From assembly GCA_038250865.1 (NCBI GenBank), contig JBBSBW010000006.1:26424-90423 (forward strand): a DNA stretch of 64,000 nucleotides. The letters run 5' to 3'. The notes under the pieces were generated by a model. It was not told the origin of the DNA. It saw nothing but the letters and a program-made list of their open reading frames with translations, and made no database searches. Every line of letters starts with the position of its first letter. Positions within the stretch are counted from its first letter, which is position 1. Positions 17,619-38,359 of the stretch are shown here, one piece after another. This DNA comes from Thermoanaerobaculia bacterium. Its GTDB lineage: Bacteria; Acidobacteriota; Thermoanaerobaculia; Multivoradales; UBA5704. Position numbers and translations under genes: made by a program.

Positions 17619-17637
17619 CGCAGCGGCGGAGGGCTCG

Positions 17638-19298: not shown

Positions 19299-19434
19299 GG
19301 TAACCCGAGGTACACCCTTCGGCGCACGACCGGCACCCTGGATTGACCGGCGCGCCACCCTGCCGTCCCAGCCCCCTTCTACGCTGAATCGCGGTGCGCA
19401 TTCGGGCGCGCCGGTTCCCGTAGGAAGGATAACC

Positions 19435-21048: not shown

Positions 21049-21191
21049 GCCCAAGGCTTCAACCCCCGAGGCCGGCGGCCTAGACACGGCTGCCGGACTC
21101 GAGGGGGTGCAAAGACCCTCCGCGATTCGCTTTCTCGATAAGCTCGACCCCGGCGCCGAAGACGAGACACCGCGCCCAGGGGAGCGAACCC

Positions 21192-22172: not shown

Positions 22173-22479
22173 ATCGATCCAACCCTGTCAGGCTAAGTCA
22201 TCCATCGGCGCGGGAACTTCTGGGTACGGATCGAGATCCTCGCCGAGGGAACCCATGGCGGCGAGAAAAGGTGCGGAAACCCCAGCGGAACGGTCCGGCA
22301 GAGATGCACGATGCGCCGCCGCAGGGCAACCGCCTGCTCGTCGGGGCCGGTCGCCCGCCGGTAGATCTCTCGCCACGCTTAGACCTCGCCCCGGTCGAGA
22401 ATCTGAGCCAGCACCTCGTCGCTAAGGAGGTTGGCGCCGTTCCGATTCCAGAGAGCTTGGGAGCGAGACAGATCGAAGC

Positions 22480-22893
22480 TCATGGCGCTGCCTCTTCGGA
22501 AGCAAGGAACGGTCCGGCCAGCGCCTTGGCTTTGATCCGCGCCATCTCGGCGAGCGTGGGGATCCGCAAACCCGCGACCTCCTCGGTTTCCAGCGGGCGG
22601 ACGCGGCGCAACTGGCGGATTCCGGTGAGAATGCCGTCGAGCCTTCCCAGAATGAGCACGGGACGGCGCACCCGCGCGGTTCGCCACCCGGCGACCTCCT
22701 CGAGGTCGCTGAGCACCTGGTCGAACCGGTCGCTCAGGTCGGCCACCACGTGATCGCCATCAACACTCACGCGGTGCCCGGGTTGAAGTGCCGCCGCCGT
22801 TCCTCCCACCAAGACGGCGTCCGGCACGATCGCCTGAAGATGGCGCTCGGCCGCAAGCAAGCGCTCCCAATCCGGGATCTCTTCATTTCTCAC
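22480..22893 (-). pseudogene. Truncated AbiEii-like nucleotidyltransferase fragment (possible TA-toxin remnant)
   Basis: The 137-aa ORF carries the N-terminal motif LVGGTAAAL...HRVSVDGDHVV, resembling the AbiEii GGTAL...R-S-DID core. Full-length AbiEii is about 250-300 aa. A 34-aa ORF (22379-22483) overlaps its stop by ATGA in another frame. No AbiEi partner is present. Confidence 0.3.
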
Positions 22894-23040
22894 GGTCTAA
22901 GAGTACCTCTGCGGCCCCCGAAAGACGACCCGGGGGTGCTTCCGGTCCAGCCTCTCCGTCGCGTAATCTACACGGCAGCCTGTTCATGGTGTCCTTCGCT
23001 TTCGTGGTCGGCACTGACCAAGCCGGCTCGTGCGAGGGTC

Positions 23041-23077
23041 CGAGGAAAAGAGGGTGGGGCCCGCGAAGCCCCACCCT
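23041..23077 (-). terminator. Rho-independent terminator for the 120-aa hypothetical gene
   Basis: Perfect 10-bp stem AGGGTGGGGC/GCCCCACCCT with a 7-nt loop, followed on the minus strand by CTTTTCC. Confidence 0.45.
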
Positions 23078-23187
23078 CGAACTTTCTACAGCTACCTCTT
23101 TTGATCTCGACTTGGATCGATGGGTGTGTCCTGCCTGCAGGCCGCGGGAGCTCCCTTTGGACGGTGCGCACGGCACACCCTGCGAGA

Positions 23188-23550
23188 TCAGTTTTCCGCC
23201 GTGGGCTTCGCCTCCTTCTTCTTACGGCCGCGCTTGGCCCGGTGCTCGGAGCGGATGTTGAAGCTTTCGAGAACCGGGTTGGCCCAACCGTATTGAGCGC
23301 GGGCGACCGCCGCGAGCTTCCGGAAGCCTTCGCTGGCCTCCTTGTTCTGCCGTCGGCGAAGGACCAACGCATCCGTCAGCTGGCCGCGGAGCATCTGACA
23401 GGTTTCCTGGGTGGTGCGGAGCGCGTCGACCCGGCGGCGGATTTCGGCGAGGTGAGCCTCGCCGCCCGGGATGCCGGGAATCGCCTCCTGGATGTTCTGG
23501 ATCGTCACGTCGCACTGGTTGATCTTGGCCCCGAACGTCGTGTCTTTCAT
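23188..23550 (-). CDS. Hypothetical protein (120 aa) with a strongly basic C-terminal tail
   Basis: AAGGAGG RBS 5 nt before ATG (MKDTTFGAKINQ...). Predicted helical, ending RAKRGRKKKEAKPTAEN. No family recognised. Confidence 0.5.
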   Translation of the reverse strand: MKDTTFGAKINQCDVTIQNIQEAIPGIPGGEAHLAEIRRRVDALRTTQETCQMLRGQLTDALVLRRRQNKEASEGFRKLAAVARAQYGWANPVLESFNIRSEHRAKRGRKKKEAKPTAEN

Positions 23551-23724
23551 ACTGCCTCCTTGTGAGAAAACGAACCGCGAAATGCGGCCCGGTGGTGCCG
23601 ATTGGACCCCGACAAACATCACGCTACAGACCCTAACGGACACACCCCTGAGAAAACGATAGGTCGGCGAAGATTCTTTTTCGCCCGTGGCGAAGAGGCT
23701 CAGAGAAGGGACGTGAAGCTTCGC

Positions 23725-24040
23725 GGAATTCGATTTTCCGGGAGAGAAATTCGATTTCGCGGACGAGAAAATCGATTTTCCGGACCGGGTGAACGATTTC
23801 GCCGGTGAGAAAATCGATTTTCCAGCCGGGAAAACTGATTTCGCGAGCCAGAAGAACGCTTTTGCGGGTGGGAAATTCGATTTCGCGGGTGAGAAAATCG
23901 ATTTCGCGAGCCGGATGAACGATTTCGCCGACCAGGAATTCGAATTTCTCGGCGGGAAAAACGAATTCGCCGACGAGAAAATTGAATTTCCGGGCCGGAT
24001 GAACGATTTCGCGGGTCGAAAAATCGATTTCGCCGACCGA
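23725..24040. repeat. Non-coding tandem array of 15 units of about 21 bp, each carrying the palindrome AAATCGATTT
   Basis: Units such as GAGAAAATCGATTTCGCGGAC repeat head-to-tail with 20-22 bp spacing. The reading frame is not conserved across units and no minus-strand ORF covers it. The plus-strand ORF 23789-24427 is a repeat artefact running antisense into marR. Confidence 0.85.
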
Positions 24041-24070
24041 ATGGACGGGGCGTCCGAAGCTCGGCGGCGG

Positions 24071-24484
24071 CTACGAGTCCCGCCCCAGTTCGGCCAAAAG
24101 CTCGGCCAGCTCCGGTCCGATGCGCCGCAACTCGGCGCGGTGCGCGGCGGCGAGGCTTGCCAGTGCGCTTCGCCCTTCGGTGGTGAGACGAACGCGGACT
24201 TGGCGGCGATCGTTGTCGGAGCGCACGCGTTCGACCAAATCCTTGGCGGCCAAGCGATCGACCAGACCTACGGCGCTGTGAGGGCGCACCGCGAGTTCGA
24301 TCGCGATCTCGCCGATCGTCATCGGCTCGTCCTGTACCCCCCTGAGCGCGAGGAGAGCCTGATGCTGCTGCGGCGTCAGGCCCGCGAGGCGCGCGGCCTC
24401 TTCGCTGAACCGGAGAAAACGCCGTAGAGAGGCGCGGAATCGCGCCAACATGCGGAACTGTCCGTCGCTCACCGGTTCGGGCAC
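24071..24484 (-). CDS. MarR family transcriptional regulator
   Basis: Winged-HTH MarR signature (LTPQQHQALLAL...MTIGEIAIELAVRPHSAVGLVDRLAAKDLVERVRSDNDRRQVRVRLTTEG). Confidence 0.85.
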   Translation of the reverse strand: MPEPVSDGQFRMLARFRASLRRFLRFSEEAARLAGLTPQQHQALLALRGVQDEPMTIGEIAIELAVRPHSAVGLVDRLAAKDLVERVRSDNDRRQVRVRLTTEGRSALASLAAAHRAELRRIGPELAELLAELGRDS

Positions 24485-24577
24485 GGCGACATTCTACTTC
24501 TCGCTTCTATCGTTCTACGATATATATTCCCTGCGCCGCGATTTTTCGTCCGCACCCTTTGGAGGTCACTTGAAGCG

Positions 24578-26407
24578 ATGACCGTTGACGATTCCGCCCG
24601 CCCAGGGCTTCACGCATCGCGCGACAGGCTGGCCGACTTCAGCACCGACCGCCGGGTTCTCGTGCTGGCCGGCCTGGCGGCGCTGATCGGGTTGCTCGCG
24701 GCCTTCGTCGCCTCCGCGTTGGTCTGGTTGATCGCCGTCATCACCAACCTCGCCTACTACCAGCGCTTTTCGTCGCACTTCACGTCGCCGGCAGGCAACA
24801 CTCTTGGCTATTGGGCCGTGCTCGTTCCCGTTGTCGGCGGCCTGGTGATCGGCTTCATGGCGCGCTACGGCTCGGAGAAGATTCGAGGCCATGGAATCCC
24901 CGAGGCCTTGGAAGCCATCCTCATCGGGCGCAGCCGGGTCGAGCCGAAGGTCGCGCTGCTCAAGCCGGTCTCGTCCGCGATCTCCATCGGCACCGGCGGG
25001 CCGTTCGGCGCCGAAGGCCCGATCATCATGACCGGGGGCGCCGTGGGCTCCCTGGTGGCACAGCTCTTTCACCTGTCGTCCGCGGAACGCAAGACCTTGC
25101 TGGTCGCAGGTGCCGCCGCGGGTATGGCCGCCATTTTCGCGACGCCGATGGCGGCGGTGTTGCTCGCGGTGGAGTTGCTGCTTTTCGAGTGGAAGCCGCG
25201 GAGCTTCATTCCGGTCGCCGTGGCCTCCGTCATCGCGGCGCTCGTCCGGGTGCCGCTCCTGGGCGCGGGACCGATCTTTCCCGTTCCCGCGCACGCCGCG
25301 CTGGGCGCCGAGGCGATCGGCTTCGCGGTTCTCGTCGGCCTCGCGGCGGGACTGGCATCGGGTCTGCTGACCGCGCTCGTCTATGCTTTCGAGGATCTTT
25401 TCGCCAAGCTCCCGCTGCACTGGATGTGGTGGCCGATCCTCGGGGGGCTCGCGGTCGGCATCGGCGGCTTGCTCGACCCGCGCGTATTGGGCGTGGGGTA
25501 CGACACCATCCAGGACCTCCTCGGCGGCCATCTCGTAGGCGGCTCGGCGGCGATGCTGCTGTTGCTCAAGGCGGTGGTCTGGTCCGTGGCTCTGGGCTCG
25601 GGCACGTCGGGAGGCGTGCTCGCGCCTCTGCTCATCATGGGCGGCGGCTTGGGCGCTCTCGAATCGTCGCTCCTGCCGGTGGGCGACGCCGGCCTTTGGG
25701 CCATGGTCAGCATGTCCGCGATGATGGGCGGAACGATGCGCTCGCCATTGACGGCGATTCTTTTCGCCGCCGAGCTGACCCACGACTGGAACGTCTTGCC
25801 GGCCCTGTTGGTGGGTTCGGTGGCCGCGCACGGCGTGACCGTCCTGCTGCTCCGTCGCTCGATTCTGACCGAGAAAATCGCCCGCCGCGGCCTTCACCTG
25901 GTGCGCGAATACAGCGTGGACCCTTTCGAAGTGCATCGCATCGGCGAGGTCATGGACAGGAACCTGGTCACGATTCCAGAATCGATGACCGTCGGAGAGC
26001 TGGCGGCGCAGATCGCCGCCGGCAATTCCGCGCTCGGGGACCGTCAGGGCATCCCGATCCTTGATGGGGAGGGGGCGTTGTCCGGAATCATCACGCGCAG
26101 CGATCTCATGCGGGCATTGGAGGACGACCAAGGAAGGGGCGCGAGCGTATTGGACGCCGGGACCCGAAACCTCATCGTCGCCTTTCCGGACGAACTCCTG
26201 CGAGACGCGGTCGGGCGGATGCTCGGAAACGACATCGGCCGGCTGCCAATCGTCGCTCGCGACGCCCCTCGGCGGCTGGTGGGTTATCTGGGCCGGGCCG
26301 GAATCATGCGGGCCCGCGTGCGCTTGCACGAGGAGGAAAACCTGCGCGAGCGCGGTCAGCGCGCGAGCGTCAGCTCCTTGACCGACACCCGTTTGGGCTC
26401 GGGGTAA
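24578..26407 (+). CDS. ClC-family chloride/anion channel or H+/anion exchanger with C-terminal CBS pair
   Basis: ClC selectivity-filter motifs GHGIPE and GTGGPFGAEGP, about 10-12 TM helices, two CBS domains at the C-terminus. Confidence 0.9.
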   Translation: MTVDDSARPGLHASRDRLADFSTDRRVLVLAGLAALIGLLAAFVASALVWLIAVITNLAYYQRFSSHFTSPAGNTLGYWAVLVPVVGGLVIGFMARYGSEKIRGHGIPEALEAILIGRSRVEPKVALLKPVSSAISIGTGGPFGAEGPIIMTGGAVGSLVAQLFHLSSAERKTLLVAGAAAGMAAIFATPMAAVLLAVELLLFEWKPRSFIPVAVASVIAALVRVPLLGAGPIFPVPAHAALGAEAIGFAVLVGLAAGLASGLLTALVYAFEDLFAKLPLHWMWWPILGGLAVGIGGLLDPRVLGVGYDTIQDLLGGHLVGGSAAMLLLLKAVVWSVALGSGTSGGVLAPLLIMGGGLGALESSLLPVGDAGLWAMVSMSAMMGGTMRSPLTAILFAAELTHDWNVLPALLVGSVAAHGVTVLLLRRSILTEKIARRGLHLVREYSVDPFEVHRIGEVMDRNLVTIPESMTVGELAAQIAAGNSALGDRQGIPILDGEGALSGIITRSDLMRALEDDQGRGASVLDAGTRNLIVAFPDELLRDAVGRMLGNDIGRLPIVARDAPRRLVGYLGRAGIMRARVRLHEEENLRERGQRASVSSLTDTRLGSG

Positions 26408-28806
26408 GGGACGGTTTCGCCGCGGATCGCGCTCCAGAGGATGCGGTTGAACAGGTCGTCGTCCGAGGCGTCCGGGATGTCCAGGTTGAGCCGGGCCGAG
26501 GCTTGCGCGGCGGGGCCGGCGGCGGGGTTCAGCTCGTCGAGCGGCACCGGGGGAACGAGGGGGTGGTAGGGGGTGAGGTCCGCCTCGGTGCCGAAGATCT
26601 CGCGCAGCGGCCGGCCGTAGTGGTCGAACTGCGAGAGGTTTCCGAGGTGGAGGATCTCCTCGATCGTCGCCAGTACGTCGGTCGTATTGACGAAACGGTG
26701 GCTGACCCCTCCCTTGTTGTAGGCCGAGATCGCGAGCATCACGCTGCGGTGGGAGTCGACGTGATCGGGTCCCGCCTGCGCGTCGTCTTCGAGCGCGAAG
26801 ATCACCGTGTTCTTCCAGAACGGGCTCGCCGAGAGCGCTTCGACGATCCGGCCGAGCGCGAGGTCGTTGTCCGCCATGTGGGCGCGCGGCGTCATCTGCC
26901 CCGGCCGGGCGCCCGAGGTGTGGTCGCTCGGCAGGTGGAGAATCTGGAGCGCCGGCATCTTGCCCGCCACGACGAAGCCGTTGAAGTCGCGCAGCCAGAC
27001 CGCCAGCCGTTTCTGATCGGGGATCGTCATGTCGAACGCCGGATAGTCGGGGCTGGTGTAGGGGCGCAAGGCCGCCTTGGTCGAGCGGTAGGTGACGGGG
27101 TTTGAATCCTTCACCGGCTCGGCGTACTCGCCGTAGACGCGCAGGCTCAGGTGTTTCGCGATCGCCAGGTTCCACAGGTAACCGCTCGCGGAATCCTCTT
27201 CGTCGCCGTCCTCTTCGCGGCCGGGGCGGCGGTCGGAATAGACCGAGGAAACCGTCTTTTCGGTGAAATCGGTGACGTAGGCGGCGGTCGACCAGGGGTG
27301 CCCCTGGGAGCTGACCTCGGCGTTGACGAAGAATCGGTCGAACAGGCCGAAGCGCTCGGCGAGCGCATGGTGGTTGGGCGAGACCTCGCGCGGGAAGAAC
27401 AGGAGCGAGGTATCGCCGTCGCCTTGGGGCAGATCGCCGAAGATCTGGTCGTAGGTGCGGTTTTCCTTGACGATGTAGATCACGTGCTCGAAGGGGGGAT
27501 AGGCGGCGGCCGAACGGGTGCGATCCCAGCCGTTCGCGCGGGTTACCCTTGCCGTGAGCGCGGGCAGGTCGCTTAGCGCCGCTTCGGGGATCACCGAGAG
27601 CGCGCCGTTCAACTGGCCGAGGGTGTAGTCGTGGGATCCCTTGATGAGTTTGTCCGGAGGCTGCTGCATACCGCGGTTCGGCCCGGTACCGCGCCCTTTG
27701 GCGTCGATCACTAGCAGGTCGCCGCGGTCGGCGAGCACCGCCGTCGGGTACCAGCCGACCGGAATCCGCCCGGCGAGCTTGTCCGTGTTGCCCTTGGCCT
27801 TCTTCGTCGCCGAGAGACCGGCGACCCCCGACGTGCGGGAAGACAGATCGAAAACGGCGACGGCGTTCGCGTCGGCCTCGGCGACGAACAGCCGTCGGCC
27901 GTCTTTTGAAAACGCGAGCGCATTGGGCGTCGAGCCCTCGTGCGGACCGGCCGGCGGCGGATCGAGGAGCGTCGCGATCACCTTTCGGCGCGCCGTATCG
28001 ACCACGGCCACCCGGTCGGTGCTCGCCGAGGCGACGAACAGGCGCGTGCCGCTCGGATTCAAGAGGAGGGCCGAGGGGTGGCGGCCGACGGCGACCGAAC
28101 CCGCGCTCCGAAGCTTGCCGTCTTTGCCCGGACGGAAGATCGCGACGCCGTCTCCCCCCCAGGCCGAAACGTAGACGGCACCGCTCGGCGCCACCGCGAC
28201 GGCGTAGGGGTAGAGCCCCGTGGCCGGCCGTTCGAGCACCTTGCCGGTCGCGGCATCGAGGACGGCGAGAGTATCCGAGAGGTTTTCGGCGACGTAGAGC
28301 CGGGCGCCGTCGGGTGAGATCGCGAGACCCGCGGCGTAGCGGGTGGCATCTTTCCCTTCGGCCTTCTCCGCCAGGACGAACGGCGGCAGCGCTTTCGCAC
28401 TTTGGCCGTCCCAGGCGTAGCGATAGACGACGTCCGCGTCGCCACCGGAGGTGTAGAGCGTCTTGCCATCCTTAGAAAACGCGAGACCGAGAAACGCCGC
28501 CGCCTGGGGAAGCGTCTGCAAGACAGCGCCGGAGCGGCGATCGACCACCTGGATGCCCTGCTCGCGCCAGCCGCTCGACAACACGATCAACCGCTCGCCG
28601 CCCGGGGCGAGGAGGGCGTTGATCGGCAGGTTGCCCAGATCGTACAGCTCGCCCGCCGGATCGAGCTGCGCCCCGGTGGGCAGGCGCGCGATGTCGGGTG
28701 GGTCGGGTGGGGTAATGGGCGGCGTCCCGTCAGCGACCGCCGGGGCAAACACTGCACCGAGGAAAAAGGCGAAAGCGAGCGGGCGGAGGTTGTCTCGGAT
28801 CGGCAT
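26356..28806 (-). CDS. Secreted fusion protein: N-terminal YncE/YVTN-type beta-propeller plus C-terminal phosphoesterase (PlcN/AcpA family)
   Basis: Signal peptide, repeated blade motifs (LYVxxxxxDxVAVxD, six or more), then the phosphoesterase-family motif YIVKENRTYDQIFGDL...HPWSTAAYVTDFTEK. The 3' end overlaps the convergent ClC gene by about 50 bp. Confidence 0.75.
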   Translation of the reverse strand: MPIRDNLRPLAFAFFLGAVFAPAVADGTPPITPPDPPDIARLPTGAQLDPAGELYDLGNLPINALLAPGGERLIVLSSGWREQGIQVVDRRSGAVLQTLPQAAAFLGLAFSKDGKTLYTSGGDADVVYRYAWDGQSAKALPPFVLAEKAEGKDATRYAAGLAISPDGARLYVAENLSDTLAVLDAATGKVLERPATGLYPYAVAVAPSGAVYVSAWGGDGVAIFRPGKDGKLRSAGSVAVGRHPSALLLNPSGTRLFVASASTDRVAVVDTARRKVIATLLDPPPAGPHEGSTPNALAFSKDGRRLFVAEADANAVAVFDLSSRTSGVAGLSATKKAKGNTDKLAGRIPVGWYPTAVLADRGDLLVIDAKGRGTGPNRGMQQPPDKLIKGSHDYTLGQLNGALSVIPEAALSDLPALTARVTRANGWDRTRSAAAYPPFEHVIYIVKENRTYDQIFGDLPQGDGDTSLLFFPREVSPNHHALAERFGLFDRFFVNAEVSSQGHPWSTAAYVTDFTEKTVSSVYSDRRPGREEDGDEEDSASGYLWNLAIAKHLSLRVYGEYAEPVKDSNPVTYRSTKAALRPYTSPDYPAFDMTIPDQKRLAVWLRDFNGFVVAGKMPALQILHLPSDHTSGARPGQMTPRAHMADNDLALGRIVEALSASPFWKNTVIFALEDDAQAGPDHVDSHRSVMLAISAYNKGGVSHRFVNTTDVLATIEEILHLGNLSQFDHYGRPLREIFGTEADLTPYHPLVPPVPLDELNPAAGPAAQASARLNLDIPDASDDDLFNRILWSAIRGETVPYPEPKRVSVKELTLAR

Positions 28807-28860
28807 CTCCCGAGATTGCCCAAGAACTCGCCGAGATGCAAGGGGTGATCCCGGGTCGGG

Positions 28861-29928
28861 TCACTCCCGCCGATCCGTGCGGCCCCACCGCCACCAGGAG
28901 TGGACCATGCCCAACGCCGTTGCGGACCATGCCAGCAACGCCACCGGCAAGGTGGCGCGAGCGAGACCGGCGAGCGGTGCCATGGGAAGCGCCGCGGCGA
29001 GCTGCCAGGTGGCGGCGGCGTACATACCCAGCGGGAAGACCATCGCCCAATATTGTGGGTCGTAGGTAAGTGCGTACCGGCGCCAGAGGTGCCGCCAGGC
29101 GCCGAGAAGCAATAAAAGCGGAATCCACCAAGTGCCCGTCGCCCAGAAGAAAAGGGTGAAACCCCGCAGAAACGGCGCGAGATCGGAGACCAGCGGCGAG
29201 CGGTGGGCAACGAGCAACAACGTCGCGCCGGCAAGGGTTGAGATCGCCACCGCTCCCATGTTGATCCAGTAGGGCGGCGTGAGGGCGGCGGTCTCCAACT
29301 CGAGAAACGTGAAGCGATAGAAGATCAGCGTGATGATCGACAGATAGAGCATGCAACCGATCAAAAAGAAGACCAACGCGCCAAAGAGCGTCGCCGCCGC
29401 CGGCCATCCGAACGGATCCACCAGGCCGGCGCCCAAAATCGCGACGGATTGCGTGGACACCGTGGCCAGGAGCCAGGCACCGTTGATGCCCTGGCCGAGC
29501 GTCGGTTTCTTTTGCCGCACGATGACGGCGAGAAAGAACGAGTACATCACCAGCGCCCACAGACCGATCCCAACCGCGAAGAAGAACTCGGCGGCGCCTC
29601 GCCAGGAAGCGACGCGCAGACACTGGCTGCCGAGGACGTTCGTCGCCGCCACCAGGGTGAAGTACCCCGAGCCTCGGGCGTGATCGCCTAGATCTTCGAG
29701 CATCCGCCGGGGAAACGCGATCAACCGAGCGAGCGTCAGCGCCAGGAGGACCGCGTAGAAGACGAGGTTTAACCCGAGCAGCGGCCGGGCGATTCCTGGA
29801 AAGCCGAGGAGTTGGCAGGCGATTGAGACGATGCCCGTCGCCATCACCAGGGCGAAGTAACCCGGGAAGAGATTGGCGAGCGCTTGGCCGGCGCGACCGT
29901 GCGGCGGCTGATTCCTGTGCCAACTCAC
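28861..29928 (-). CDS. TehA/Mae1/SLAC1-family (TDT) anion transporter
   Basis: 10-TM protein with N-terminal LANLFPGYFALVMATGIVSIA, characteristic of the tellurite-resistance/C4-dicarboxylate transporter family. Confidence 0.8.
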   Translation of the reverse strand: MSWHRNQPPHGRAGQALANLFPGYFALVMATGIVSIACQLLGFPGIARPLLGLNLVFYAVLLALTLARLIAFPRRMLEDLGDHARGSGYFTLVAATNVLGSQCLRVASWRGAAEFFFAVGIGLWALVMYSFFLAVIVRQKKPTLGQGINGAWLLATVSTQSVAILGAGLVDPFGWPAAATLFGALVFFLIGCMLYLSIITLIFYRFTFLELETAALTPPYWINMGAVAISTLAGATLLLVAHRSPLVSDLAPFLRGFTLFFWATGTWWIPLLLLLGAWRHLWRRYALTYDPQYWAMVFPLGMYAAATWQLAAALPMAPLAGLARATLPVALLAWSATALGMVHSWWRWGRTDRRE

Positions 29929-29949
29929 CGGTTCGACCCCGTGCCGCTC

Positions 29950-30177
29950 TCAGCGGTCGAGCTGGTAGACATAGCGAAGCAGGCCGAGGATGAGCAGTAA
30001 GCAGGCCGCGCTGGCGGCCGCCGCGGGGAGCGCCGCGGTGTGATCGCCGCCGAGATAGGCGTTCATCGTCGCGGTGAAAAGCCAGAGCTGCAGCACCACG
30101 ATCAACACCACGATCGCGATGATGCCTGAAAGGATCGGGGTCTTCTGCGCCCGCGTGAAGCGCCGTCGGCCGTTCAC
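29950..30177 (-). CDS. Small two-TM membrane protein (75 aa)
   Basis: GTG start overlapping the Rieske stop (GTGA); two hydrophobic helices; no family recognised. Confidence 0.5.
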   Translation of the reverse strand: MNGRRRFTRAQKTPILSGIIAIVVLIVVLQLWLFTATMNAYLGGDHTAALPAAAASAACLLLILGLLRYVYQLDR

Positions 30178-30719
30178 GAGGTTCGCTCCGTGACCCCGAC
30201 GGCAAAGATCCGGTCACCGCGCACCTTGAGCTCGACTTTCGGCAGCGGCCGGCGCGGCGGGCCGGAGATCGTCCGCCCCGTTGCGAGGTCGAAGTTTCCG
30301 TTGTGGCAGGGGCAGTGGAATCGACCTTGCGCCACTTGCGGGATGACCGGGCAGGAGAGGTGTGTGCATCGTTGATCGAACGCCACCACCTCCTGCTCGC
30401 TCAAGCGCACCAAAAGCTTCGGCTGGCCCGGACCTGGATAGTCGAACTGCAGCGTCCCCCCGACCGGCAGATCCGAGAGACGGGCCACCAAGAGTTCGCG
30501 CGAATCGGCGCTCCCTCCGAACCAGCTCTTGGCGAGAATCCAGGCCTGGCCGGCGACGAAGGCGAAGCTGGTGAGGGCGAGGAACTTGGTAAATTCGCGA
30601 CGCGCGACGTAGTGGTCCTCCGGAACATCAATAGGAAAGTCCCGCCGCCACTTCGGCTGTTCTTCCATCGGCCGGCCGTCCGGGGCGATCGTGAGCTCGT
30701 CGGGGTCGCTGCGGCTCAT
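30174..30719 (-). CDS. Rieske [2Fe-2S] protein with N-terminal membrane anchor
   Basis: The start is reassigned to MSRSDPDEL (ATGA overlap with the ferredoxin stop). TM segment [17 protein letters not shown]; Rieske boxes CTHLSCPV and CPCHNGNF. Confidence 0.85.
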
Positions 30720-31360
30720 GCGGAGCCCTCCTCGAAGTAATTCGCGAGCAAGGGATCGAGCGGCGGGGCGGTCGAGCCGCCCGGCTCTAACGGTGCCGTA
30801 ATCTGCAGCAGGTTCTCCGCGAACGACTTCGGCACGACCATTTTCACCTTGGTGGTCACCCGCTGGGCGCCGAAGCGGAACGTGTCGACCGGTTGCGAAT
30901 TGGGGCGCAGGCTCTCGAACTCTTCGCGGGTGCCGAAGTAGAGCGCTTGGCTCGGGCAGACCGAGGCGCACATCGGCTTCAAGCCTTGCGAAGTGCGGTC
31001 GTAGCACATGTCGCACTTCATCATCAGGTTGGCTTGGTCATGCATCTTCGGAACCCCGAACGGGCAGGCCAGCACGCAGTTGTTGCAGGCGATGCAGCGC
31101 GCTTTGCGGGCCGTCTGTACGACCCCGTCCTCGGTGCGCTTGATCGCGTCGGCCGGACAGACTTCGGCGCAGGTCGGCTGGTCGCAGTGCATGCAGATCA
31201 CCGGAACCGTCTGCGTTGAGCGCGAGCGGTCGATGAAGTCGAGCTGGATCATCGACAGCCCTTTGTGGGTGTCGCACTCCGAGCAGGCCTGGACGCAGGC
31301 GTTGCAGCCGATGCAGCGCGCCGGGTCGATGTAGAAGTTGTAGTCGGCGGGTACCGGCAT
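30716..31360 (-). CDS. Four-cluster [4Fe-4S] ferredoxin-type electron-transfer subunit (DmsB/FdhB/NrfC-like)
   Basis: Four CxxCxxCxxxCP-type motifs ([41 protein letters not shown]...CASVCP). Confidence 0.85.
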
Positions 31361-31400
31361 CAGGGCGAGACTCCTCGGACGGGGAAAGAGCGAGAGCGGT

Positions 31401-33635
31401 TCACGCGACAGCCTCGCGTATTTCTTCGGCGGTCGCCACGCGGAGTCGTACCGCGCAGGCCTTGAACTCCGGGATTTTCGAGATCGGATCCTGGGCGGAG
31501 ATCGTGAGACGGTTGACGCTCCGCTTGCCCGGCCAATGGTAGGGCACGAAAATCGTATCGGGCCGAATGGTCGCGACGACCCGCGCCTTGAGCGTCAGGC
31601 GGCCGCGCCGCGTCTCGGCCGTCGCCCACGCGCCATCGCCGATCGAGAGCTTCTCGGCGAGTCGAGGATGGACCTCAATGAACGGCTCGGGATCCATGTC
31701 GAGCAGCGGGCCGATCCGTCGCGTCTGGGTGCCTGACAAGAACTGGCCGACCAGGCGGCCGGTGGTGAGGATGATCGGAAACTCTGCGTCGATCTCCTCG
31801 GCGGGCGGCGCATAGGTTGCGACGTTGAATCGTGCCTTTCCGTCGGGAAAGTAGTACGGGCCCTTGCCCTGTGCGACGACGTTCCACGACTCCGGCTCAA
31901 AAAGGCGGGGCGTGCCGGCATGGTCCGCGCTCGGACAGGGCCAGAAGACCCCCTGCTGGCGGTCGATTTTTTCCCAGGTGATCCCCGAGTAATCGGCGAT
32001 ACCCCCTTTGGAGGCGACGCGGAGTTCCTCGAAGATGGCGCGCGGCCCGTCAAACGTGAACCCGTGCTCTCGATCGATCGCGCGGGCAAGATCCTGAATG
32101 ATCCGCCAGTCTTCGCGCGCCTCGCCCGGGCAGGCGATCGCCTTGTTGATCTTGATCACCCGTCCTTCGGTGGTCGTCACCGTACCCTCATCCTCCTCGT
32201 GAAGAGAGCCGGGAAGGACGATGTCGGCATATCGCGCCGTTTCGCTCAGGAAAAAGTCGATCGCCACGAAGAAGTCGAGCTTACCCAGCATCTCCCTGAC
32301 GAAGTCGCTGTCCGGCAGGGAGACGACGGGGTTGAAGCAGAGCGAGAGGAGCCCCTTGATCTCGCCGCGCTCGATGCGGCGAAAGATCTCGTAGGCATCG
32401 ACGCCGGGCTGTGGCATGTCTTCGACCGGCATACCCCAGACGCCGGCGATGTAGGAGCGGGCCTCCGGGTCGGCAAGCTTGCGTCCGCCCGGGAGTTGAT
32501 CGCACTTTTGACCGTGCTCGCGTCCTCCCTGCCCGTTGCCCTGGCCGGTGATCGTGGCGTAGCCGCAGAACTCCCTGCCGATCCGTCCCGAGGCCAGCAC
32601 CATGTTGATCGCGCCGAGCACGTTCTGCACACCGTGGCTCGAGTGCTCGATGCCGCGGGCATGCATCAGAAAACTGGTTTTCGCCGTTCCCCACCACTCC
32701 GCGGCCTGACGGATCGCCGACTCGGTGATGCCGGTGACCGAGGCGGTCCTTTCCGGCGTCCACTCGGCGACGTGACGGGCCAGCTCGTCGAAGCCGACGG
32801 TCTGATGCGCCACGAACTCGCGGTCGACCCAGCCGTTTTCGATCATCAGGTGCAAGATGCCATTGAAGAGAGCGACATCTCGGCCCGGCTTGATCGGGAG
32901 GAACAGGTCGCAGGTGCGAGCGATCGGCGTGAGGCGCGGATCGACAACGATCACTTTCGCACCGCGCTCGCGGGCCTGCCAGATGTAGTCCGTGGTGATC
33001 GGCGCGCATTCGGCGACGTTGGCCCCCGAGATCCAGATCAGCTCGGCGCCGAGGATGTCCGACCAGGGGTTCGCGGCACGGTCGACGCCGAACGCCTTGC
33101 TGTTCCCTGCGCCCGCCGACACCATGCAGAGACGCCCGTTGTAGTCGATGTTCGACGTGCCGAGCGCCATATGGGCGAACTTACCGACGAGATAGGCCTT
33201 CTCCGTGGTCAGGGAGGCGCCCGAGAGGACCGCCATGGCGTCGCGGCCGTAACGCTCCTGAATGCGCCGGATTTCGCCGGCCGTCCGTTCGATCGCCTGC
33301 CCGTACTCGATCGATCGGAAGCCGCCCGGCGATCTTTCGTCGCGTTCGTACGCGGTGAGCAGGCGATCGGGATGGGCGCCTTGCAGGTAGCGCTTGATCC
33401 CTTTCGGACAGAGCATGCCGCGATTGAACGGGAAGTCGTAACGCGGCTCGAAGCCGACGACCTCCTCATCCTTGACTTTGAGTCGGATGCCGCATTGCTG
33501 GCCGCAGAAGCAGCAGTGCGTATCGACGATCCTGTCGGGCACGACGCCGGTATCGAGGCGTGTGCCGCTCGAATAGGCCGCGTGCGGGCCGAACGGATCG
33601 TCGACCGGCGGATCTAAAGCGGTCAGCCTAGCCAT
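31401..33635 (-). CDS. Molybdopterin (Mo-bisPGD) oxidoreductase catalytic subunit, assimilatory-nitrate-reductase-like (NasA/NarB family), cytoplasmic
   Basis: The start is reassigned to MARLTALD. N-terminal 4Fe-4S motif CCFCGQQC...GMLCPKG, MopB core and C-terminal molybdopterin-binding barrel, no Tat signal. Confidence 0.8.
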
Positions 33636-34800
33636 GGAAGTTCTCCGCATCATCCGTGCCGAGCGGTCCTTCGCCGAGGCCGGGATTGACGTAGCTCGGT
33701 GCCGCCCCGGGCGCCACCAGCACACCACCGCGCACGCCGCTCCAGGCGAAACCCTGTGCGGTGGCCAGCAACGCCCGTCGGCATGGGGGGCAGACCCATT
33801 GATAGTGGCCGACAGATCCCGCGAGGGAGTAATCGAAGCCGAGACGTCGCTCGACCTCGATCAGGTCCTCGACATGCATCTTCGACGTAAAGCCGTGGCC
33901 ACAGCGGCGGCAGATCGCTGCTTCCTCGTCGCGGCCGACCTCTTTGTAGAAGCGCACCGCGAGTTGCGCCGGACGCTGGAAGATATGGAAGAACTTGCCG
34001 AACGGCAGCCAGAGAAAGGTGAAGATCACCGTCACCGCGTGGAGGATGGCCAGGAAGTCGTAGGCGTATCCGTGCATCCACGTATAGCTCGCGGTGAGCA
34101 TGAGGCCGGTCAGGCTGACCGCGAAAAGTAGGAACAGAGGGAGAAAATCCTCGATAAAACTCTGTAGCGCCGCCGCGCCCTCTTCACGCATCCGGCGGCG
34201 CATGGCGAGCATCACACCGGCGATCACCAGGAAGGATGCCCAGACCAGACCGTGAAAGATCAGAAAGCCGAAGAGTGACCCGCTGGGAAAGGTGAACACC
34301 GGCAAGCCGAGGGCGAAGACGCGGTAGGTTTCTGGGCTTCCCGGCACCGACTCGAACATGAACCAGCCGAAGACGAGGGGAAAGGTAATCGCGACGGCGA
34401 GCAGGCAGCCCCAGAGAATCAACAGGTGCGTGAGTCCGCGGAGCCGGCCGCGCGCCCAGATGAAGCGGTTGAGCGCGATGTCGGAAACGGCATGCAGGAG
34501 ACCGTGACCGAAGTTGCGCAGGCGCCGCTCGCCGGAGCCGCGGCGGAAGACGACCTGCCACCCTCGCCGCCAGTAAAGCGCGGTGGGGGGCCGCTCCAAC
34601 CACATCGCGTAGCGGTAGGTGATCCCGAAGGTCGCAAAGAGGATCGAGAAGGTATAGGCCACCAGCGCGGCGTCGAAATGCGCCAGATTCCTGGAGCCGC
34701 CGATGATGGCGGCTCCCACCAAGCCCGTGACCAAAAGCCCCCAGGCCCCGGCTCGGCGAGCCTCAGGGGCGATGCCCAATCGTCGGATCTGTTGGCTCAC
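33628..34800 (-). CDS. Polytopic membrane protein (NarI/cytochrome-b-like, His-rich TM helices) fused to a C-terminal rubredoxin-like CxxCG...WxCPxC domain
   Basis: GTG start after an AAGGAGGAGG RBS. About 8 TM helices with conserved His ([32 protein letters not shown]). C-terminus CRRCGHGF...(28 aa)...WVCPPC. Stop lies 4 nt from the MopB start. Confidence 0.6.
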
Positions 34801-34877
34801 TCGGTCCCCTCCTCCTTTCTCTCCGAAGACTCGAAGGGTTGCCGTCAGGGTGTGCGTGCAGGGCGCAAGCCGCGCGC

Positions 34878-35552
34878 TCAGGCAGCCGCAAGCCGGGGGA
34901 AGAGAACATTGTTCTCGAGATGAATGTGGTGATGCAGATCCGTTTCGAGCGCCTCCAATCCGTGCCAGAGCGCGCTCCAGGTGTTGCAGGCGCCGTCCGG
35001 AAGCCGGAAGTCGTCCGTCAGACCGCGAATCTCCACCAGCCGGTTTCCCACCTCGGTATGGTCGTCGCGGAATGCGGCGACGGCCGGGCCGGCTTCGGCG
35101 CCGCGTTCGAGGATCGGCGGGAAGAGTTCGGCCTCCTCGCGGTCCATGTGTTGCGCGAGGTCGGCTTGGAGCGCCAGGTACGCCGTCTGGAGCGCGGGCA
35201 GACGCACCGGCTCGCGCTCGCCATGGACCCGGGCGACCTTGCGAACCATCGCTTCGAGGCGCGGAAGCTCCTCGCGAAGAGGGGCGTGGTAGGCGCTCAG
35301 GATGTGCCGCACCAGATCGTCGGGGGAGGCCTCGTTCCAGTTCTCGGCGGGGGCAGAGGTGGCGGCGAGGGATTCGTGGATTTCGGCCACCAAAGCCTCT
35401 GGGGTGAAACCACGTCGCTCGCAAATCTCGGCCAGCGAGCGTCCCCCGCCGCAGCAGAAGTCAATGCCGTGCCGAGCGAAAACGCGGGTGGCGAGGGGAT
35501 GGCGGGCGGCGATTTCGCCGACCCGCGATTGGGGAGTGATGTCGAGGTCCAT
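34878..35552 (-). CDS. Repair-of-iron-centres di-iron protein (RIC/YtfE/ScdA family)
   Basis: ScdA_N motif GIDFCCGGG and C-terminal hemerythrin-like His/Glu ligands (HHxxE, HIHLEN). Confidence 0.8.
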
Positions 35553-35581
35553 AGGGATCAAGTTCCTTTCTCTCAGGTCCA

Positions 35582-36277
35582 TCAGGTCGATCGAATGGAT
35601 CGGCCGTTGGCCGCATGGTGCGCCCGGTCGCCCTGCGGTGAACTCGCGACGGCGTAGGTGCAAGAGGCATCGCCGTCCGGCATGAACTGAATGCGATCGA
35701 GCGGTCTTCCCAGCAGCTCTTCGGCGAGCTTCATCTCGGCGCGGCAGGGAAGATGGGTGACGGCGACCAACTCGCGCAGCGGGCAGTGGCAGAGACGAAG
35801 GCGGATCGGCTCCCCGCCCTTAAGTTCCGCTTCGGCGAGGTAGCCTTCCGTCGACAGCGAGCGCGCGATCTCGTTCAGACGCTCGCCCACCTCAAGTCCT
35901 TCCATGCGTTGCGCGAGGCGCTCTCTTTTGAGGTGGGTGCGCGCCGCGAAGAACTCCTCAAGAAGCTCCGGGTGCTCGCTTTGGAGAAGGTAGCGGGCAA
36001 GCTCGGCGAGCATTTCGCCCTCGCGGCGCGGAAAGAGCGCCTCACCCTGGGCGCTCAGCCGATAGACCACTTGCGGGCGACCGGGGCCCTGCCGACGCAC
36101 ACCGGCTCGTTCGATCAAGTGTTGAGCGGTGAGCGATTCGAGGTGGCTTCTCACCGTCTCGCGAGCCACCTCCATCCCGGTCTCGACCTCGGCCAGAGTG
36201 ACCTCGCCGCGCCGCTTCAAAAGCTCGAGCAGCGTCCGCTGGCTCGCGCCAAGCCCGGGTCCGTAGAGGTCGTCCAT
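35582..36277 (-). CDS. Winged-HTH transcriptional regulator with C-terminal Cys-rich (CHC...C...C) putative sensory domain
   Basis: wHTH (LLELLKRRGEVTLAEVETGMEVARETVRSHLESLT...GRPQVVYRLS), C-terminal LRLCHCPL...LPC...SCTY. It is the first gene of the Mo-enzyme operon. The start is ambiguous (36277 or 36343). Confidence 0.55.
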   Translation of the reverse strand: MDDLYGPGLGASQRTLLELLKRRGEVTLAEVETGMEVARETVRSHLESLTAQHLIERAGVRRQGPGRPQVVYRLSAQGEALFPRREGEMLAELARYLLQSEHPELLEEFFAARTHLKRERLAQRMEGLEVGERLNEIARSLSTEGYLAEAELKGGEPIRLRLCHCPLRELVAVTHLPCRAEMKLAEELLGRPLDRIQFMPDGDASCTYAVASSPQGDRAHHAANGRSIRST

Positions 36278-36444
36278 GGGGGCACCGTACTCTTCCGCCT
36301 CTCGGCTTGTCAAGGTTGTTGTGAGAAAAACCATGAAATCCATCGATCCAGGAGAGTCACGAAGCACAGTCGGCGAATTTCTAGGGGTCGGGTATGCTCC
36401 CCGGCCCGACGCCGGCATCGAGGCGCCCAGGAGCACGAGGTCCC

Positions 36445-38244
36445 ATGTTTCCCCACGAACGCATCCGCAACTTTTCGATCGTCGCCCACATCGACCACGG
36501 CAAGTCGACGCTCGCCGACCGGATTCTTGAGAAGACCGGTTCGGTCTCCTCGCGCGACATGGTGGCGCAGCTGCTCGACGACATGGATCTGGAGCGCGAG
36601 CGCGGGATCACCATCAAGGCTCGCGCGGTCCGGCTGTATTTCAAGGCCGCGGACGGCGAGACCTACCAGTTCAACCTGATCGACACCCCCGGCCACGTCG
36701 ATTTCGCCTATGAAGTCTCGCGCAGCCTTGCGGCCTGTGAGGGCGCGATTCTGGTGGTCGACGCCGTCCAGGGGGTCGAGGCGCAGACGCTCGCGAACGC
36801 CTATCTCGCGGTCGATGCGGAGCTGGCGATCGTCCCCGTGATCAACAAGATCGACCTGCCCGCCGCGGATCCGGAGCGGATCAAGGAGCAGATCGAAAAC
36901 GTCATCGGGATCGACGCCCACGACGCGGTGCTCGCCTCGGCCAAGGCGGGGATCGGCATCGAAGACGTGCTCGAACGGGTGGTTCGCGACATTCCGGCGC
37001 CCACGGGCAACCCCGACGGGCCGCTCAAAGCGCTGCTGTTCGACTCCTGGTACGACCCGTATCGCGGCGTCGCCTGCATGATCCGAGTGATCGACGGCAC
37101 GCTCAAGAAGGGCGAAAAGATCCAGCTGATGGCGAGCAAGCGGGTCTACGCGGTCGACGAGATGGGAATCTTCAGCCCGAAGGCGGCCGGCGTCACCTCG
37201 CTTTCGGTGGGCGAGGTCGGCTTCTTCTACGCCGGAATCAAAGATTTGATCCAGGCACAGATCGGCGACACCGTGACGCACTCCGAGCGCCCGACGGCCG
37301 AGGCTTTTCCCGGCTTTCAAGAGGTCAAGCCGGTGGTCTTCGCCGGCCTCTATCCGGTTTCGGCGGACGACTACGAGGGGTTGCGCGACGCGGTGGACAA
37401 GCTGCGTTTGAACGACGCCTCGTTCAGCTTCGAGCCGGAAAGCTCCGGCGCGCTCGGCTTCGGGTTCCGCTGCGGCTTTCTCGGTCTGCTGCACATGGAG
37501 ATCATCCAATCGCGCCTGGAGCGGGAGTTCGACCTCGACCTGATCACCAGCGCCCCGGGCGTGCGCTACCGCGCAAAAACCACCGATGGCAAAGAGTTCG
37601 AGGTAGACAGCCCGGCGAAGCTCCCCGATCCGAGCAAGCTCGACTACTTAGAAGAGCCCTACATCACGTCGACGATCGTCTCCCGCTCCGAGTACGTCGG
37701 GGCGATCCTCCAACTCGCCGAAGACCGCCGCGGCGAGCAGAAGAGCCTCCAGTACCTGTCCACCGACCGGGTGTTGATCCAATACGACTTCCCGCTCGCC
37801 GAGGTGATCCTCGATTTCTACGACCGCTTGAAGTCCTGCTCGCGCGGCTATGCGAGCTTCGACTACCAGTTGATCGGCTACCGGCGCAGCGACCTGGTGA
37901 AGCTCGACGTCCTGGTGAACGGCGAAGCCATCGACGCGCTCTCGCTGATCATCCACCGCGAGAAGGCCTATTCCCGCGGCCGAATGCTGATCGAGAAGAT
38001 GAAGGAGCTGATCCCCCGCCAAATGTTCGAGGTCGTCCTCCAGGCTGCCATCGGCTCCCGGGTCATCTCGCGGGAAACCGTGCGGGCGATCTCCAAAAAC
38101 GTCATCGCGAAATGCTACGGCGGCGACATCTCCCGCAAACGCAAGCTGATCGAGAAGCAGAAGGAAGGCAAGAAGCGCATGAAGCGGGTGGGGCGCGTGG
38201 ACATCCCGCAGGAGGCGTTTCTGGCGGTTTTGCGGATGGATTGA
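36445..38244 (+). CDS. lepA: Elongation factor 4 (LepA)
   Basis: [21 protein letters not shown]1 motif, [12 protein letters not shown], and the LepA-specific C-terminal domain. Confidence 0.95.
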
Positions 38245-38359
38245 TTGAGGGGCTCAGGTGGTCGAGTTGTCGCCTGGAGGTGACGGTTTCCGCCGTTTTG
38301 CGCTGGTTCACCTTGAAATCTGAACGGTGGTGTTATCGATTTTCAAGGTGTTTGCCTGG

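Follow-up and report, generated by a model that had tools for sequence, protein, structure and literature searches.

Gene content of the locus

The stretch of DNA studied here, called the window in the following, covers 64,000 nt of the genome of a Thermoanaerobaculia bacterium (Acidobacteriota) and has a GC content of ~65%. It carries a gene for a TehA/SLAC1-type protein at the end of a molybdenum (Mo) enzyme operon, and next to it genes for a probably secreted fusion protein and for a ClC-type channel protein. An earlier note on this DNA had suggested that the two channels provide a dedicated import/export route for oxyanions, and had called the role of the fusion between them unexplained. 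Our analysis divides this group. Judged by sequence and gene order, the Mo enzyme and its partners probably form a quinol-linked, membrane-bound nitrate reductase of an undescribed type, with TehA as its nitrate/nitrite conduit, and the fusion and ClC genes belong to a conserved neighbourhood that relatives keep without any Mo operon, which the earlier note had overlooked.

Gene calls in the window were based on a listing of open reading frames (ORFs) and on Pfam and NCBIfam profile scans. The features around the operon are as follows; the backbone and the island are defined in the next section.

24071..24484, minus strand: MarR-family regulator (Pfam MarR_2, 52 bits), divergent from ClC; backbone, outside the island
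24578..26407, plus strand: ClC with a C-terminal CBS pair, 609 aa (Pfam); backbone
26356..28806, minus strand: probably secreted fusion of a YncE-like beta-propeller and a PF04185 phosphoesterase, 816 aa (Pfam, NCBIfam); backbone
28807..36393, between the fusion gene and lepA: island of ~7.6-7.7 kb (blastn)
28861..29928, minus strand: TehA/SLAC1-family protein with ten transmembrane (TM) segments, 355 aa (PF03595, fold match, synteny); last gene of the island
29950..30177, minus strand: DUF6755 small protein, 75 aa, two hydrophobic segments (ORF; PF20540 on orthologs)
30174..30719, minus strand: bc-type Rieske [2Fe-2S] subunit with a motif like that of twin-arginine translocation (Tat) signals (Pfam Rieske, 48.9 bits)
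30716..31360, minus strand: ferredoxin-type subunit, DmsB/NrfC-like, four Cys motifs (Fer4_11, 84 bits)
31401..33635, minus strand: catalytic subunit of the Mo-bis(pyranopterin guanine dinucleotide) (Mo-bisPGD) type, Nas/NarB/Nap-Fdh clade, 744 aa from the ATG of 'MARL' (Pfam, NCBIfam)
33628..34803, minus strand: six-TM membrane subunit, here called Memb, 391 aa (weak PF02665, TcuB and QmoC matches)
~34878..35585 (start approximate), minus strand: RIC/YtfE-type di-iron protein for Fe-S repair, ScdA_N plus hemerythrin (TIGR03652, Pfam)
~35582..36270 (start approximate), minus strand: SufR-like winged-helix regulator (TIGR02702, HTH_DeoR); first gene of the island
36394..38244, plus strand: lepA (EF4) (Pfam GTP_EFTU, LepA_C); backbone

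The ORFs for ClC, the fusion and TehA lie where the earlier note had placed them, and each scores above the Pfam curated cut-off for the family named there. The fusion and ClC genes converge and share 52 nt at their 3' ends (26356-26407), a length given before as about 50 bp. TehA does lie within the Mo-enzyme operon, on the same strand and 21 nt from its upstream gene, and seven further genes are packed tightly upstream of it on that strand in the ORF listing. The earlier account of the operon was thus right about TehA and incomplete for the rest, since DUF6755, the Rieske protein, the six-TM subunit, RIC and the regulator had been missed. RIC passes its curated equivalog cut-off (TIGR03652, 227.9 bits versus 204.7). 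The regulator scores 57.7 bits on the SufR model TIGR02702, below the cut-off, and an ortholog with 79% identity stands upstream of the module in loci L005/L010.

A 7.7-kb island beside a conserved backbone

The region consists of two unrelated things, a conserved backbone of MarR, ClC-CBS, fusion and lepA, and an island of 7.7 kb. In the closest relatives, which are Thermoanaerobaculia metagenome-assembled genomes (MAGs) with a fusion 87-89% identical to that of the window, the gene order is Dus, RsgA, lepA, fusion, ClC-CBS, MarR. TehA and the Mo genes are absent from these contigs, where lepA abuts the fusion gene. By blastn, the window is collinear with them only over 14122-28690 and 36391-46135, and the 28.7-36.4 kb part has no counterpart in them. 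Because collinearity breaks at 28690 and resumes at 36391, the block from SufR through RIC and the Mo genes to TehA is an indel island of 7.7 kb. All island genes lie on the minus strand, with the SufR-like regulator and RIC followed by the six-gene module. The same gene arrangement occurs in one independent public assembly, and the MarR/ClC pair is kept in L001, L003, L005, L006 and L025.

The flanks of the island have no notable direct or inverted repeats, its ORFs include no integrase or transposase, and there is neither a tRNA gene at its borders nor a GC anomaly. With no repeats, mobility genes, nearby tRNA or composition shift to go by, the event may have been an insertion here or a deletion in the relatives. 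We found no Mo-cofactor or other riboswitch in the window. The fusion gene starts 54 nt past TehA on the same strand, and the junction has no sigma-70-like promoter and no intrinsic terminator. Since no terminator-like site lies between them, read-through from TehA into the fusion gene is possible; were it to occur, it would be a chance result of how the two segments are joined.

A conserved module across phyla

The module is not restricted to this genome. TehA homologs with 85%, 76% and 65% identity, the last from Ca. Eisenbacteria, all lie on contigs with the order Memb, Mo, FeS (iron-sulfur), Rieske, DUF6755, TehA on one strand. The protein sizes there are 390 aa for the membrane protein, 744-768 aa for the Mo subunit, ~214 aa for the Fer4_11 protein, 181 aa for Rieske and 73-75 aa for DUF6755. 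In a survey seeded with TehA (one genome per species, 80 loci, window proteins searched by tblastn and all ORFs clustered), the module lay directly upstream of TehA in 58 loci. The remainder comprised two loci with a partial module or one downstream of TehA, four cut by contig ends, seven with narGHJI and nine with TehA alone. The 58 loci come from Thermoanaerobaculia, Pyrinomonadaceae/Blastocatellia, Vicinamibacterales, Anaerolineae, Ardenticatenaceae, Polyangiaceae, Sandaracinaceae, Rhodothermales, Planctomycetaceae and Proteobacteria MAGs, so that the module is present in Acidobacteriota, Chloroflexota, Myxococcota, Rhodothermales, Planctomycetota and Proteobacteria MAGs.

Since this sample was seeded with TehA, the frequency of modules lacking TehA has to be taken from another seed. 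We therefore seeded a second survey of metagenome contigs with an alignment of the membrane subunit, which gave 31 loci with enough downstream sequence. Mo, Rieske and DUF6755 genes were present in all 31 of these assessable modules, and TehA followed DUF6755 in 21. The earlier note had taken synteny between the channels and the Mo operon in related genomes as decisive for its proposal. For TehA this synteny holds (58/80 loci); for ClC, which lies within the locus in 4/80 TehA-seeded and 1-2/31 Memb-seeded loci, both of the latter being weak matches, it is seen in a minority.

Recurrent neighbours of TehA or the module are RIC (15 loci), Crp/Fnr regulators (11), hemerythrin-like proteins (10), NarL-type regulators (7) and MobA (6), and NnrS occurs in one module locus. 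This set of neighbours is that of dissimilatory nitrate/nitrite metabolism and nitrosative stress, and not of assimilation.

A divergent form of the module was seen in Pyrinomonadaceae/Chloracidobacterium (L023, L024, L032, L035, L050, L054, L056, L058, L059, L065, L072, L083, L086), with 41-45% identity for the membrane subunit, 52-54% for Mo and 36-41% for Rieske. DUF6755 is barely or not detectable by tblastn in these loci. Between Rieske and TehA they encode a protein of 106 aa whose C-terminal half is hydrophobic, a hemerythrin-like protein and, often, a Cys/His-rich protein of 105 aa; a MobA gene is nearby in some of them. Two other genes stand by the module in single loci. In Ca. Eisenbacteria L008 (11165-12721, minus strand) there is a 518-aa fusion of Rieske, Rieske_2 and Pyr_redox_2 domains that resembles NirD and ferredoxin reductases, and in Thermoanaerobaculia L006 (14328-16066, plus strand) there are SorAB-like genes (Oxidored_molyb/Mo-co_dimer plus cytochrome c).

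TehA and NarK exchange positions

In seven loci without the module, a TehA ortholog follows narGHJI directly and thus holds the position that NarK-type genes have there. The curated NCBIfam models identify these operons with scores of 1558 bits for NarG (cut-off 1084), 657 for NarH (524), 60.5 for NarJ (59.35) and 211 for NarI (105.6), in a check that covered one representative of each nar cluster. The operon in L081 contains a sensor kinase, a NarL-type regulator, cytochrome c, narGHJI, TehA and a further cytochrome c, and none of the five scanned ORFs flanking its nar operon is a major facilitator superfamily (MFS) gene. Identity between the TehAs linked to Nar and the module-linked TehAs from the same phyla is 60-70%, and the two sets interleave. 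Because the TehA of the window is no closer to many of the module-linked proteins, Nar-linked and module-linked TehAs form one orthologous family.

The converse arrangement is found in the modules. A NarK-family MFS gene occupies the slot after DUF6755 in at least 3 of the 10 Memb-seeded loci that lack TehA. Two MFS genes with NarK as the best match occur in L140, one of them scoring 346 bits (cut-off 311.7) and 491 on NarU. For the slot genes in L127 and L133, NarK is the best family, below the cut-off. The TehA-less module in L108 is followed by genes for a hemerythrin and an NnrS protein.

This reciprocal pattern, TehA in the place of NarK after narGHJI and NarK in the place of TehA after the module, is the strongest argument that we have. 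Because of it, the comparison supports nitrate reduction as the function of the enzyme and nitrate/nitrite transport as that of this TehA subfamily.

Subunits of the Mo enzyme

The best curated family for the Mo subunit is NasC (NF047855), with a full-length match of 761.8 bits against an equivalog cut-off of 1100; the formate dehydrogenase (Fdh) alpha model gives 556 bits and NapA 239. In alignments with PDB entries, the Mo subunit has GRLCMVSAG where formate dehydrogenases have arlCH or arlXH, that is Cys-Met in place of Cys or selenocysteine and His, and iTGQGNGQG where they have lRGQNNVQG, with Thr in place of the catalytic Arg. The Cys-Met motif is kept in at least 90% of 51 homologs. Cys-Met without the Fdh Arg is what we take to be the Nap/Nas pattern from the literature on FdhH and NapA. 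Formate dehydrogenase was considered for the Mo subunit and set aside because of these active-site residues. A Tat motif is absent from the Mo subunit in 51 of 51 homologs, in which ~37-46 residues precede the 4Fe-4S motif. The FeS subunit has four conserved Cys motifs, no signal peptide and no TM segment.

The Memb family comprises at least 7610 clusters at 90% identity, of which all but one are without a Pfam domain. Six TM segments are predicted, and the counts of Lys and Arg place both termini and a basic loop of 65 residues in the cytoplasm. Five His of the membrane region are invariant (H42, H126, H184, H255 and H273, the last two 18 residues apart), as is a C-terminal Cys4 motif whose domain is predicted to be cytoplasmic. 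Similarity to NarI (PF02665), TcuB and QmoC stays below threshold. The predicted structure has a mean predicted local distance difference test (pLDDT) score of 70, and its sole plausible fold match, M. smegmatis EtfD, is not significant (probability 0.98, TMq 0.36, E 0.07). From these features Memb is presumed to be a quinol-oxidising cytochrome b with two haems, possibly NarI-like. Database annotations of Memb are inconsistent (P0241-P0360), ranging from 'MFS transporter' (NCBI) and 'nitrate reductase gamma subunit' (JGI) to hypothetical protein, and the first of these labels seems to be wrong.

The Rieske subunit has boxes of the bc type, CTHLSCPV and CPCHNG with the extra disulfide Cys pair, and these are conserved in 60 homologs, together with a motif [ST]RR[DE]F[ILV]KF that is followed by a weakly to moderately hydrophobic stretch. 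Its N-terminus is by sequence a textbook Tat signal-anchor like that of the bc1 Rieske protein or AioB, and would place the Rieske domain in the periplasm. The best NCBIfam matches are AioB and the bc1/b6f Rieske proteins, with all curated subfamily models below cut-off.

The TehA/SLAC1-type protein

TehA matches PF03595 with 154.1 bits (cut-off 27.9), residues 20-342 covering positions 2-331 of the 331 in the profile, and scores 81.5 bits on the subfamily model TIGR00816 (cut-off 237). Searches against the PDB by sequence, with the single sequence or with a profile of 22 sequences, gave no real match. The AlphaFold model computed with 22 homologs has a pLDDT of 86.8 and a predicted TM-score (pTM) of 0.89, and the top 24 Foldseek matches to it in the PDB are all SLAC1, SLAH3 or H. 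influenzae TehA (probability 1.00, TM-score 0.6-0.8). These matches confirm the ten-helix SLAC1/TehA fold.

Plant SLAC1/SLAH members conduct nitrate and chloride, and this nitrate conductance matches the role inferred for the TehA of the window. No physiological substrate has, to our knowledge, been established for bacterial TehA proteins. The window TehA shares PF03595 and the 10-helix fold (TM-score 0.65-0.79) with the plant proteins and H. influenzae TehA, but it has 14-18% identity to them and lacks the regulatory N- and C-terminal tails. One homolog, P0213, is fused to DUF6755. Stand-alone orthologs with 54-55% identity occur in isolates L076 (Halomonas halodenitrificans DSM 735), L064 and L073; the neighbours of the one in L076 include a Cu-ATPase, a RIC homolog and a protein of the COX1 family that may be NorB-like.

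The ClC-CBS protein and the fusion

ClC has a Voltage_CLC domain (254 bits) and two CBS stretches in Pfam, and filter motifs GHGIPE, GAEGP, VELLLFE and GGVLAP. The earlier note had pointed to the gating glutamate for telling channel from exchanger. This Glu is retained (GAEGP versus GREGP of 1KPL, E148 of ClC-ec1), but the other residues of the exchanger are not. In the alignment with 1KPL, the central Ser107 is replaced by His (GHGIPE), Phe357 by Leu and the internal proton Glu203 by Leu (VELLLFE), and the central Tyr445 is probably replaced by Leu (SILTEK), as read from the motif comparison and from a manual alignment past the end of the HMMER alignment. The ClC of the window therefore shares with the Cl-/H+ exchanger ClC-ec1 of E. 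coli and Salmonella the Voltage_CLC fold of ~400 residues and the gating Glu, and differs from it at the Ser, Phe, Tyr and Glu203 positions and in its C-terminal CBS pair. It scores below the cut-offs of the ClcA and ClcB equivalog models. The Pro that marks the nitrate-selective plant CLC (CLCa) is missing. Orthologs with 92% identity are present in relatives without the island.

Proteins with the same filter occur near the module in the window, L005/L010, L006/L007, L025 and L061. The gene orders differ, and in L025 (Ardenticatenaceae) the order is TehA, MarR, ClC, RIC. A ClC subfamily with GHGIPE ... SI[LM]TEK, in which His replaces the chloride-coordinating Ser and Leu or Met the central Tyr, was seen in the window, L001, L003, L006, L010, L025 and L061, and always with a divergent MarR gene where this was looked for. 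Its substrate may be other than chloride.

In the fusion, the propeller matches (Lactonase, SGL, YNCE, YVTN repeats) span ~aa 76-330 and the PF04185 phosphoesterase aa 466-721. Both domains described in the earlier note exceed their gathering scores (PF04185, 50.4 versus 23; PF21783, 32.5 versus 27.1; PF10282, 57.8 versus 21.7). An ENR metal-binding motif starts near aa 445, and by eye the N-terminus resembles a Sec signal peptide, MPIRDNLRPLAFAFFLGAVFAPAVA/DG. More than 6370 homologs exist, mostly in Acidobacteriota, and among the matches listed the top ones (mostly 58-89% identical) are almost all ~780-840 aa long with both domains. NCBI names the family 'bifunctional YncE family protein/alkaline phosphatase family protein'. 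The fusion is thus an ordinary member of a large, named and uncharacterised acidobacterial family. It resembles AcpA/PlcN phosphoesterases and YncE propellers in its two domains and ENR motif, and differs from them in that the two are joined here in one predicted secreted protein that is unrelated to the Mo module. The fusion is missing from all 160 surveyed loci with the module or TehA, and its place next to TehA is an arrangement specific to this genome that is due to the indel.

A 537-aa PhoX-like ORF with a weak match (27.4 bits) lies ~5 kb from the fusion gene at 19435-21048 on the plus strand. Given this gene nearby, one might speculate that the fusion has its role elsewhere, for example in phosphate scavenging.

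Other features of the window

Just past the 3' end of the MarR gene, in a stretch of lower GC content, positions 23730-24047 contain ~14 tandem copies of a 21-nt unit with consensus TCGATTTTCCGGGCGAGAAAA, and periods of 42, 63 and 126 nt are also visible. A similar array is suggested by blastn in several registers in a related contig, probably L003 beside its MarR gene, where the subject record is ambiguous. The neighbouring positions 22200-23700 align in patches to the closest relatives, with a weak coding signal and no Pfam match, and make up a second variable spot distinct from the island. A tmRNA gene (41655-41998, plus strand; tag peptide ANDNFALAA) lies ~5 kb from the island and does not border it. 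Further away are a signal recognition particle RNA gene (59850-59948, plus strand) and two adjacent tRNA-Ser genes (56506-56697, minus strand).

Discussion

Our comparisons suggest a widespread, undescribed module resembling nitrate reductases, in which a SLAC1/TehA protein is interchangeable with NarK, and to which the ClC and fusion genes would be ordinary neighbours. The dedicated nitrate/nitrite route that the earlier note proposed is thereby upheld for TehA, as a conserved terminal gene that swaps with NarK and is linked to narGHJI, and is not upheld for a unit including ClC and the fusion. DUF6755, TehA in nar operons and this combination of subunits are not mentioned in the open-access literature as far as we found, and nothing relevant turned up there on bacterial SLAC1 homologs in nitrate operons.

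Compared with NarGHI and NarK of E. coli, Paracoccus and Thermus, the module has the same outline of a Mo-bisPGD subunit, an FeS protein with several clusters, a membrane subunit and a transporter gene at the end of the operon. NarG is a protein of ~1200 aa with an Asp ligand to Mo. The catalytic subunit of the module, in contrast, is Nas/NarB-like with 744 aa and a Cys ligand; its FeS subunit has 214 aa and not ~500, Memb combines six TM segments with a Cys4 domain, Rieske and DUF6755 are additional, and NarJ is missing. The narG model gives 66 bits (cut-off 1084), narH 45 (524) and PF02665 on Memb 20.1 (22.9). Because the NarG, NarH and NarI models fail, the module does not belong to the NarGHI family; we propose that it works like NarGHI with NarK in outline.

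A Rieske-type partner, NasG, is known from the Nas system of Paracoccus, and haloarchaeal pNarGH-NarB(Rieske)-NarC(cytochrome b) is a nitrate reductase with a Rieske protein and a b-type cytochrome. With NasC, NasA and NarB the module shares the full-length NasC match, the Cys-Met dyad, the N-terminal 4Fe-4S motif and the lack of a signal peptide. It differs from these systems in that its partners are membrane-bound and not a soluble NAD(P)H or ferredoxin route, and in that its neighbours are RIC, Fnr, NnrS and hemerythrin and not nirBD or nrtABC. Rieske and cytochrome b genes are also present in the Nap cluster of Caldithrix (PMC5317091). The haloarchaeal and Caldithrix systems resemble the module in combining a nitrate reductase with Rieske and a b-type cytochrome as the quinol-oxidising part. 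There, however, NarG or NapA itself carries a Tat signal and the cytochrome b resembles that of bc1, whereas the Mo subunit of the module has no signal and Memb weakly resembles NarI, TcuB and QmoC. In a survey of the MopB superfamily, NasC, NasA and NarB sequences make up a single pooled family that is treated as assimilatory (PMC10100899).

In the mechanism that we consider probable, the six-TM b subunit, presumably with two haems, would oxidise quinol, and the Nas/NarB-like Mo-bisPGD subunit would reduce nitrate with the four-cluster ferredoxin, the bc-type Rieske protein and DUF6755 as partners. The active site would most probably face the cytoplasm, and TehA would be the nitrate/nitrite conduit that fills the role of NarK in classical nar operons. 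Since it is channel-like, nitrite efflux would be its simplest physical role, and exchange is also conceivable; a passive anion channel would favour the export of nitrite. RIC and the Fe-S-type regulator could protect against, and sense, nitrosative stress from the nitrite formed.

A more specific version of this mechanism is only a tentative proposal. The complex might be a third kind of membrane-bound nitrate reductase, built from a Nas-like enzyme, a possibly NarI-like cytochrome b and a Tat-exported Rieske protein, with TehA as the conduit interchangeable with NarK. It would then work as a machine of the Rieske/cytochrome b kind. The electrons of quinol would be split, one passing through the b haems across the membrane to cytoplasmic nitrate reduction, and the other through Rieske to periplasmic acceptors.

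The topology also decides on the most serious alternative, in which Mo, FeS and Rieske are exported together by Tat on the Rieske signal, as in AioAB, and act in the periplasm. Memb and Rieske would then be a quinol oxidase of the Rieske/cytochrome b kind as in pNar-NarBC, and TehA would move nitrite or another anion and not feed an active site in the cytoplasm. The Tat-like motif with its weak hydrophobic region in 60 Rieske homologs, the bc-type boxes CTHLxC and CPCH, the best match to AioB and the precedents for Rieske/cytochrome b genes in nitrate-reductase clusters of Caldithrix and haloarchaea all speak for such export. Against it, neither the Mo subunit (51/51 homologs) nor the FeS subunit has a signal, the Cys4 domain and basic loops of Memb predict a docking face in the cytoplasm, and enzymes of the Nas clade are described as residing in the cytoplasm (PMC10100899). 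In the periplasm the enzyme would also need neither NarK nor TehA, yet at least 24 of the 31 modules end with one of the two. The Mo/FeS arm itself looks cytoplasmic from its sequence, and the need for NarK or TehA agrees with this. Because of this transporter linkage we lean towards a cytoplasmic active site, in which case Rieske may work with Memb at the outer face in a bc-like quinol oxidation, over joint export, which we regard as possible and on balance unlikely. A different substrate would be a further departure. If the enzyme were a formate dehydrogenase or a reductase of tellurite, selenate or chlorate, TehA could handle tellurite, sulfite or dicarboxylates. Formate dehydrogenases are indeed the best solved-structure relatives, the TehA family takes its name from tellurite resistance, one locus has SorAB-like genes downstream, and the TehA superfamily includes yeast Ssu1 (sulfite) and Mae1 (malate). 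These points are outweighed by the Cys-Met that replaces Sec/Cys-His of Fdh, the missing Fdh Arg and NasC as the top curated family, and by TehA genes that stand in narGHJI operons, swap with the NarK family and have genes of NO and nitrite stress as neighbours, so that we hold another substrate to be improbable.

The remaining alternatives concern ClC and the fusion. ClC-CBS of the GHGIPE type and its MarR regulator could be a loosely linked accessory of the module, perhaps an anion/proton exchanger for nitrite, nitrate or counter-ions. ClCs with the same filter do lie within ~3.5 kb of the module in all five cases listed above, and our own estimate is that ~0.5-1% of genes would by expectation have a ClC within 20 kb, compared with ~5% observed. 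But a nearby ClC is lacking in more than 90% of the module loci, the ClC/MarR pair also exists without the module, and three of the five cases come from one class and are hence not independent; we consider the accessory role doubtful. That ClC, the fusion and TehA form one unit for importing, exporting and processing an oxyanion for the Mo enzyme is far less probable still. The three genes are physically adjacent, the same arrangement recurs in the independent assembly, and TehA and the fusion gene have no terminator-like site between them. However, the fusion, ClC and MarR adjoin lepA in relatives that have neither TehA nor Mo genes, so that synteny largely refutes the unit, and the fusion is absent from the 160 TehA and module loci, while its family, with more than 6370 members, has a distribution of its own. 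The flanking of the fusion by two channels is therefore mostly a coincidence of gene order.

Several observations weigh against the nitrate reductase with TehA as its conduit. The Mo subunit falls short of the NasC equivalog cut-off, and solved structures put it nearest to formate dehydrogenases. The Tat motif and bc boxes argue for a periplasmic Rieske, which looks a poor fit to a cytoplasmic Mo/FeS arm. SLAC1-type proteins conduct passively, and a simple channel would hardly account for the uptake of nitrate against a potential that is negative inside. About one-third of the modules have no TehA and ~6/31 no adjacent transporter at all. Conversely, TehA stands alone in 9/80 loci from Firmicutes and Halomonas/Billgrantia, and this holds for every isolate locus of the TehA-seeded set (Halomonas/Billgrantia, Paenibacillus, Geobacillus, Planococcus, Fontibacillus). 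The one such neighbourhood that was scanned fully (Geobacillus thermodenitrificans, L077) has sugar-metabolism genes and no relation to nitrogen metabolism. Nearly all surveyed loci come from MAGs or metagenome contigs, and the curated check of the nar operons extends to one representative per cluster. Every functional statement on the module, its substrate, direction of transport, haem content and topology included, is drawn by comparison.

A signal-less Nas-like enzyme combined with a Tat-type Rieske protein and a presumed cytochrome b poses a bioenergetic puzzle. If the nitrate reductase with TehA as its conduit is real, it would be an abundant nitrate-reducing complex of soils and sediments that gene-centric surveys have missed, because such surveys would label its parts as assimilatory Nas, 'MFS transporter' or 'hypothetical'. 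Estimates of which organisms carry out dissimilatory nitrate reduction would then change. It would also give a native function to bacterial TehA homologs and an evolutionary root to the nitrate conductance of plant SLAC1/SLAH, and would link bacterial TehA/SLAC1 proteins functionally to the nitrate channels of plant guard cells and roots.

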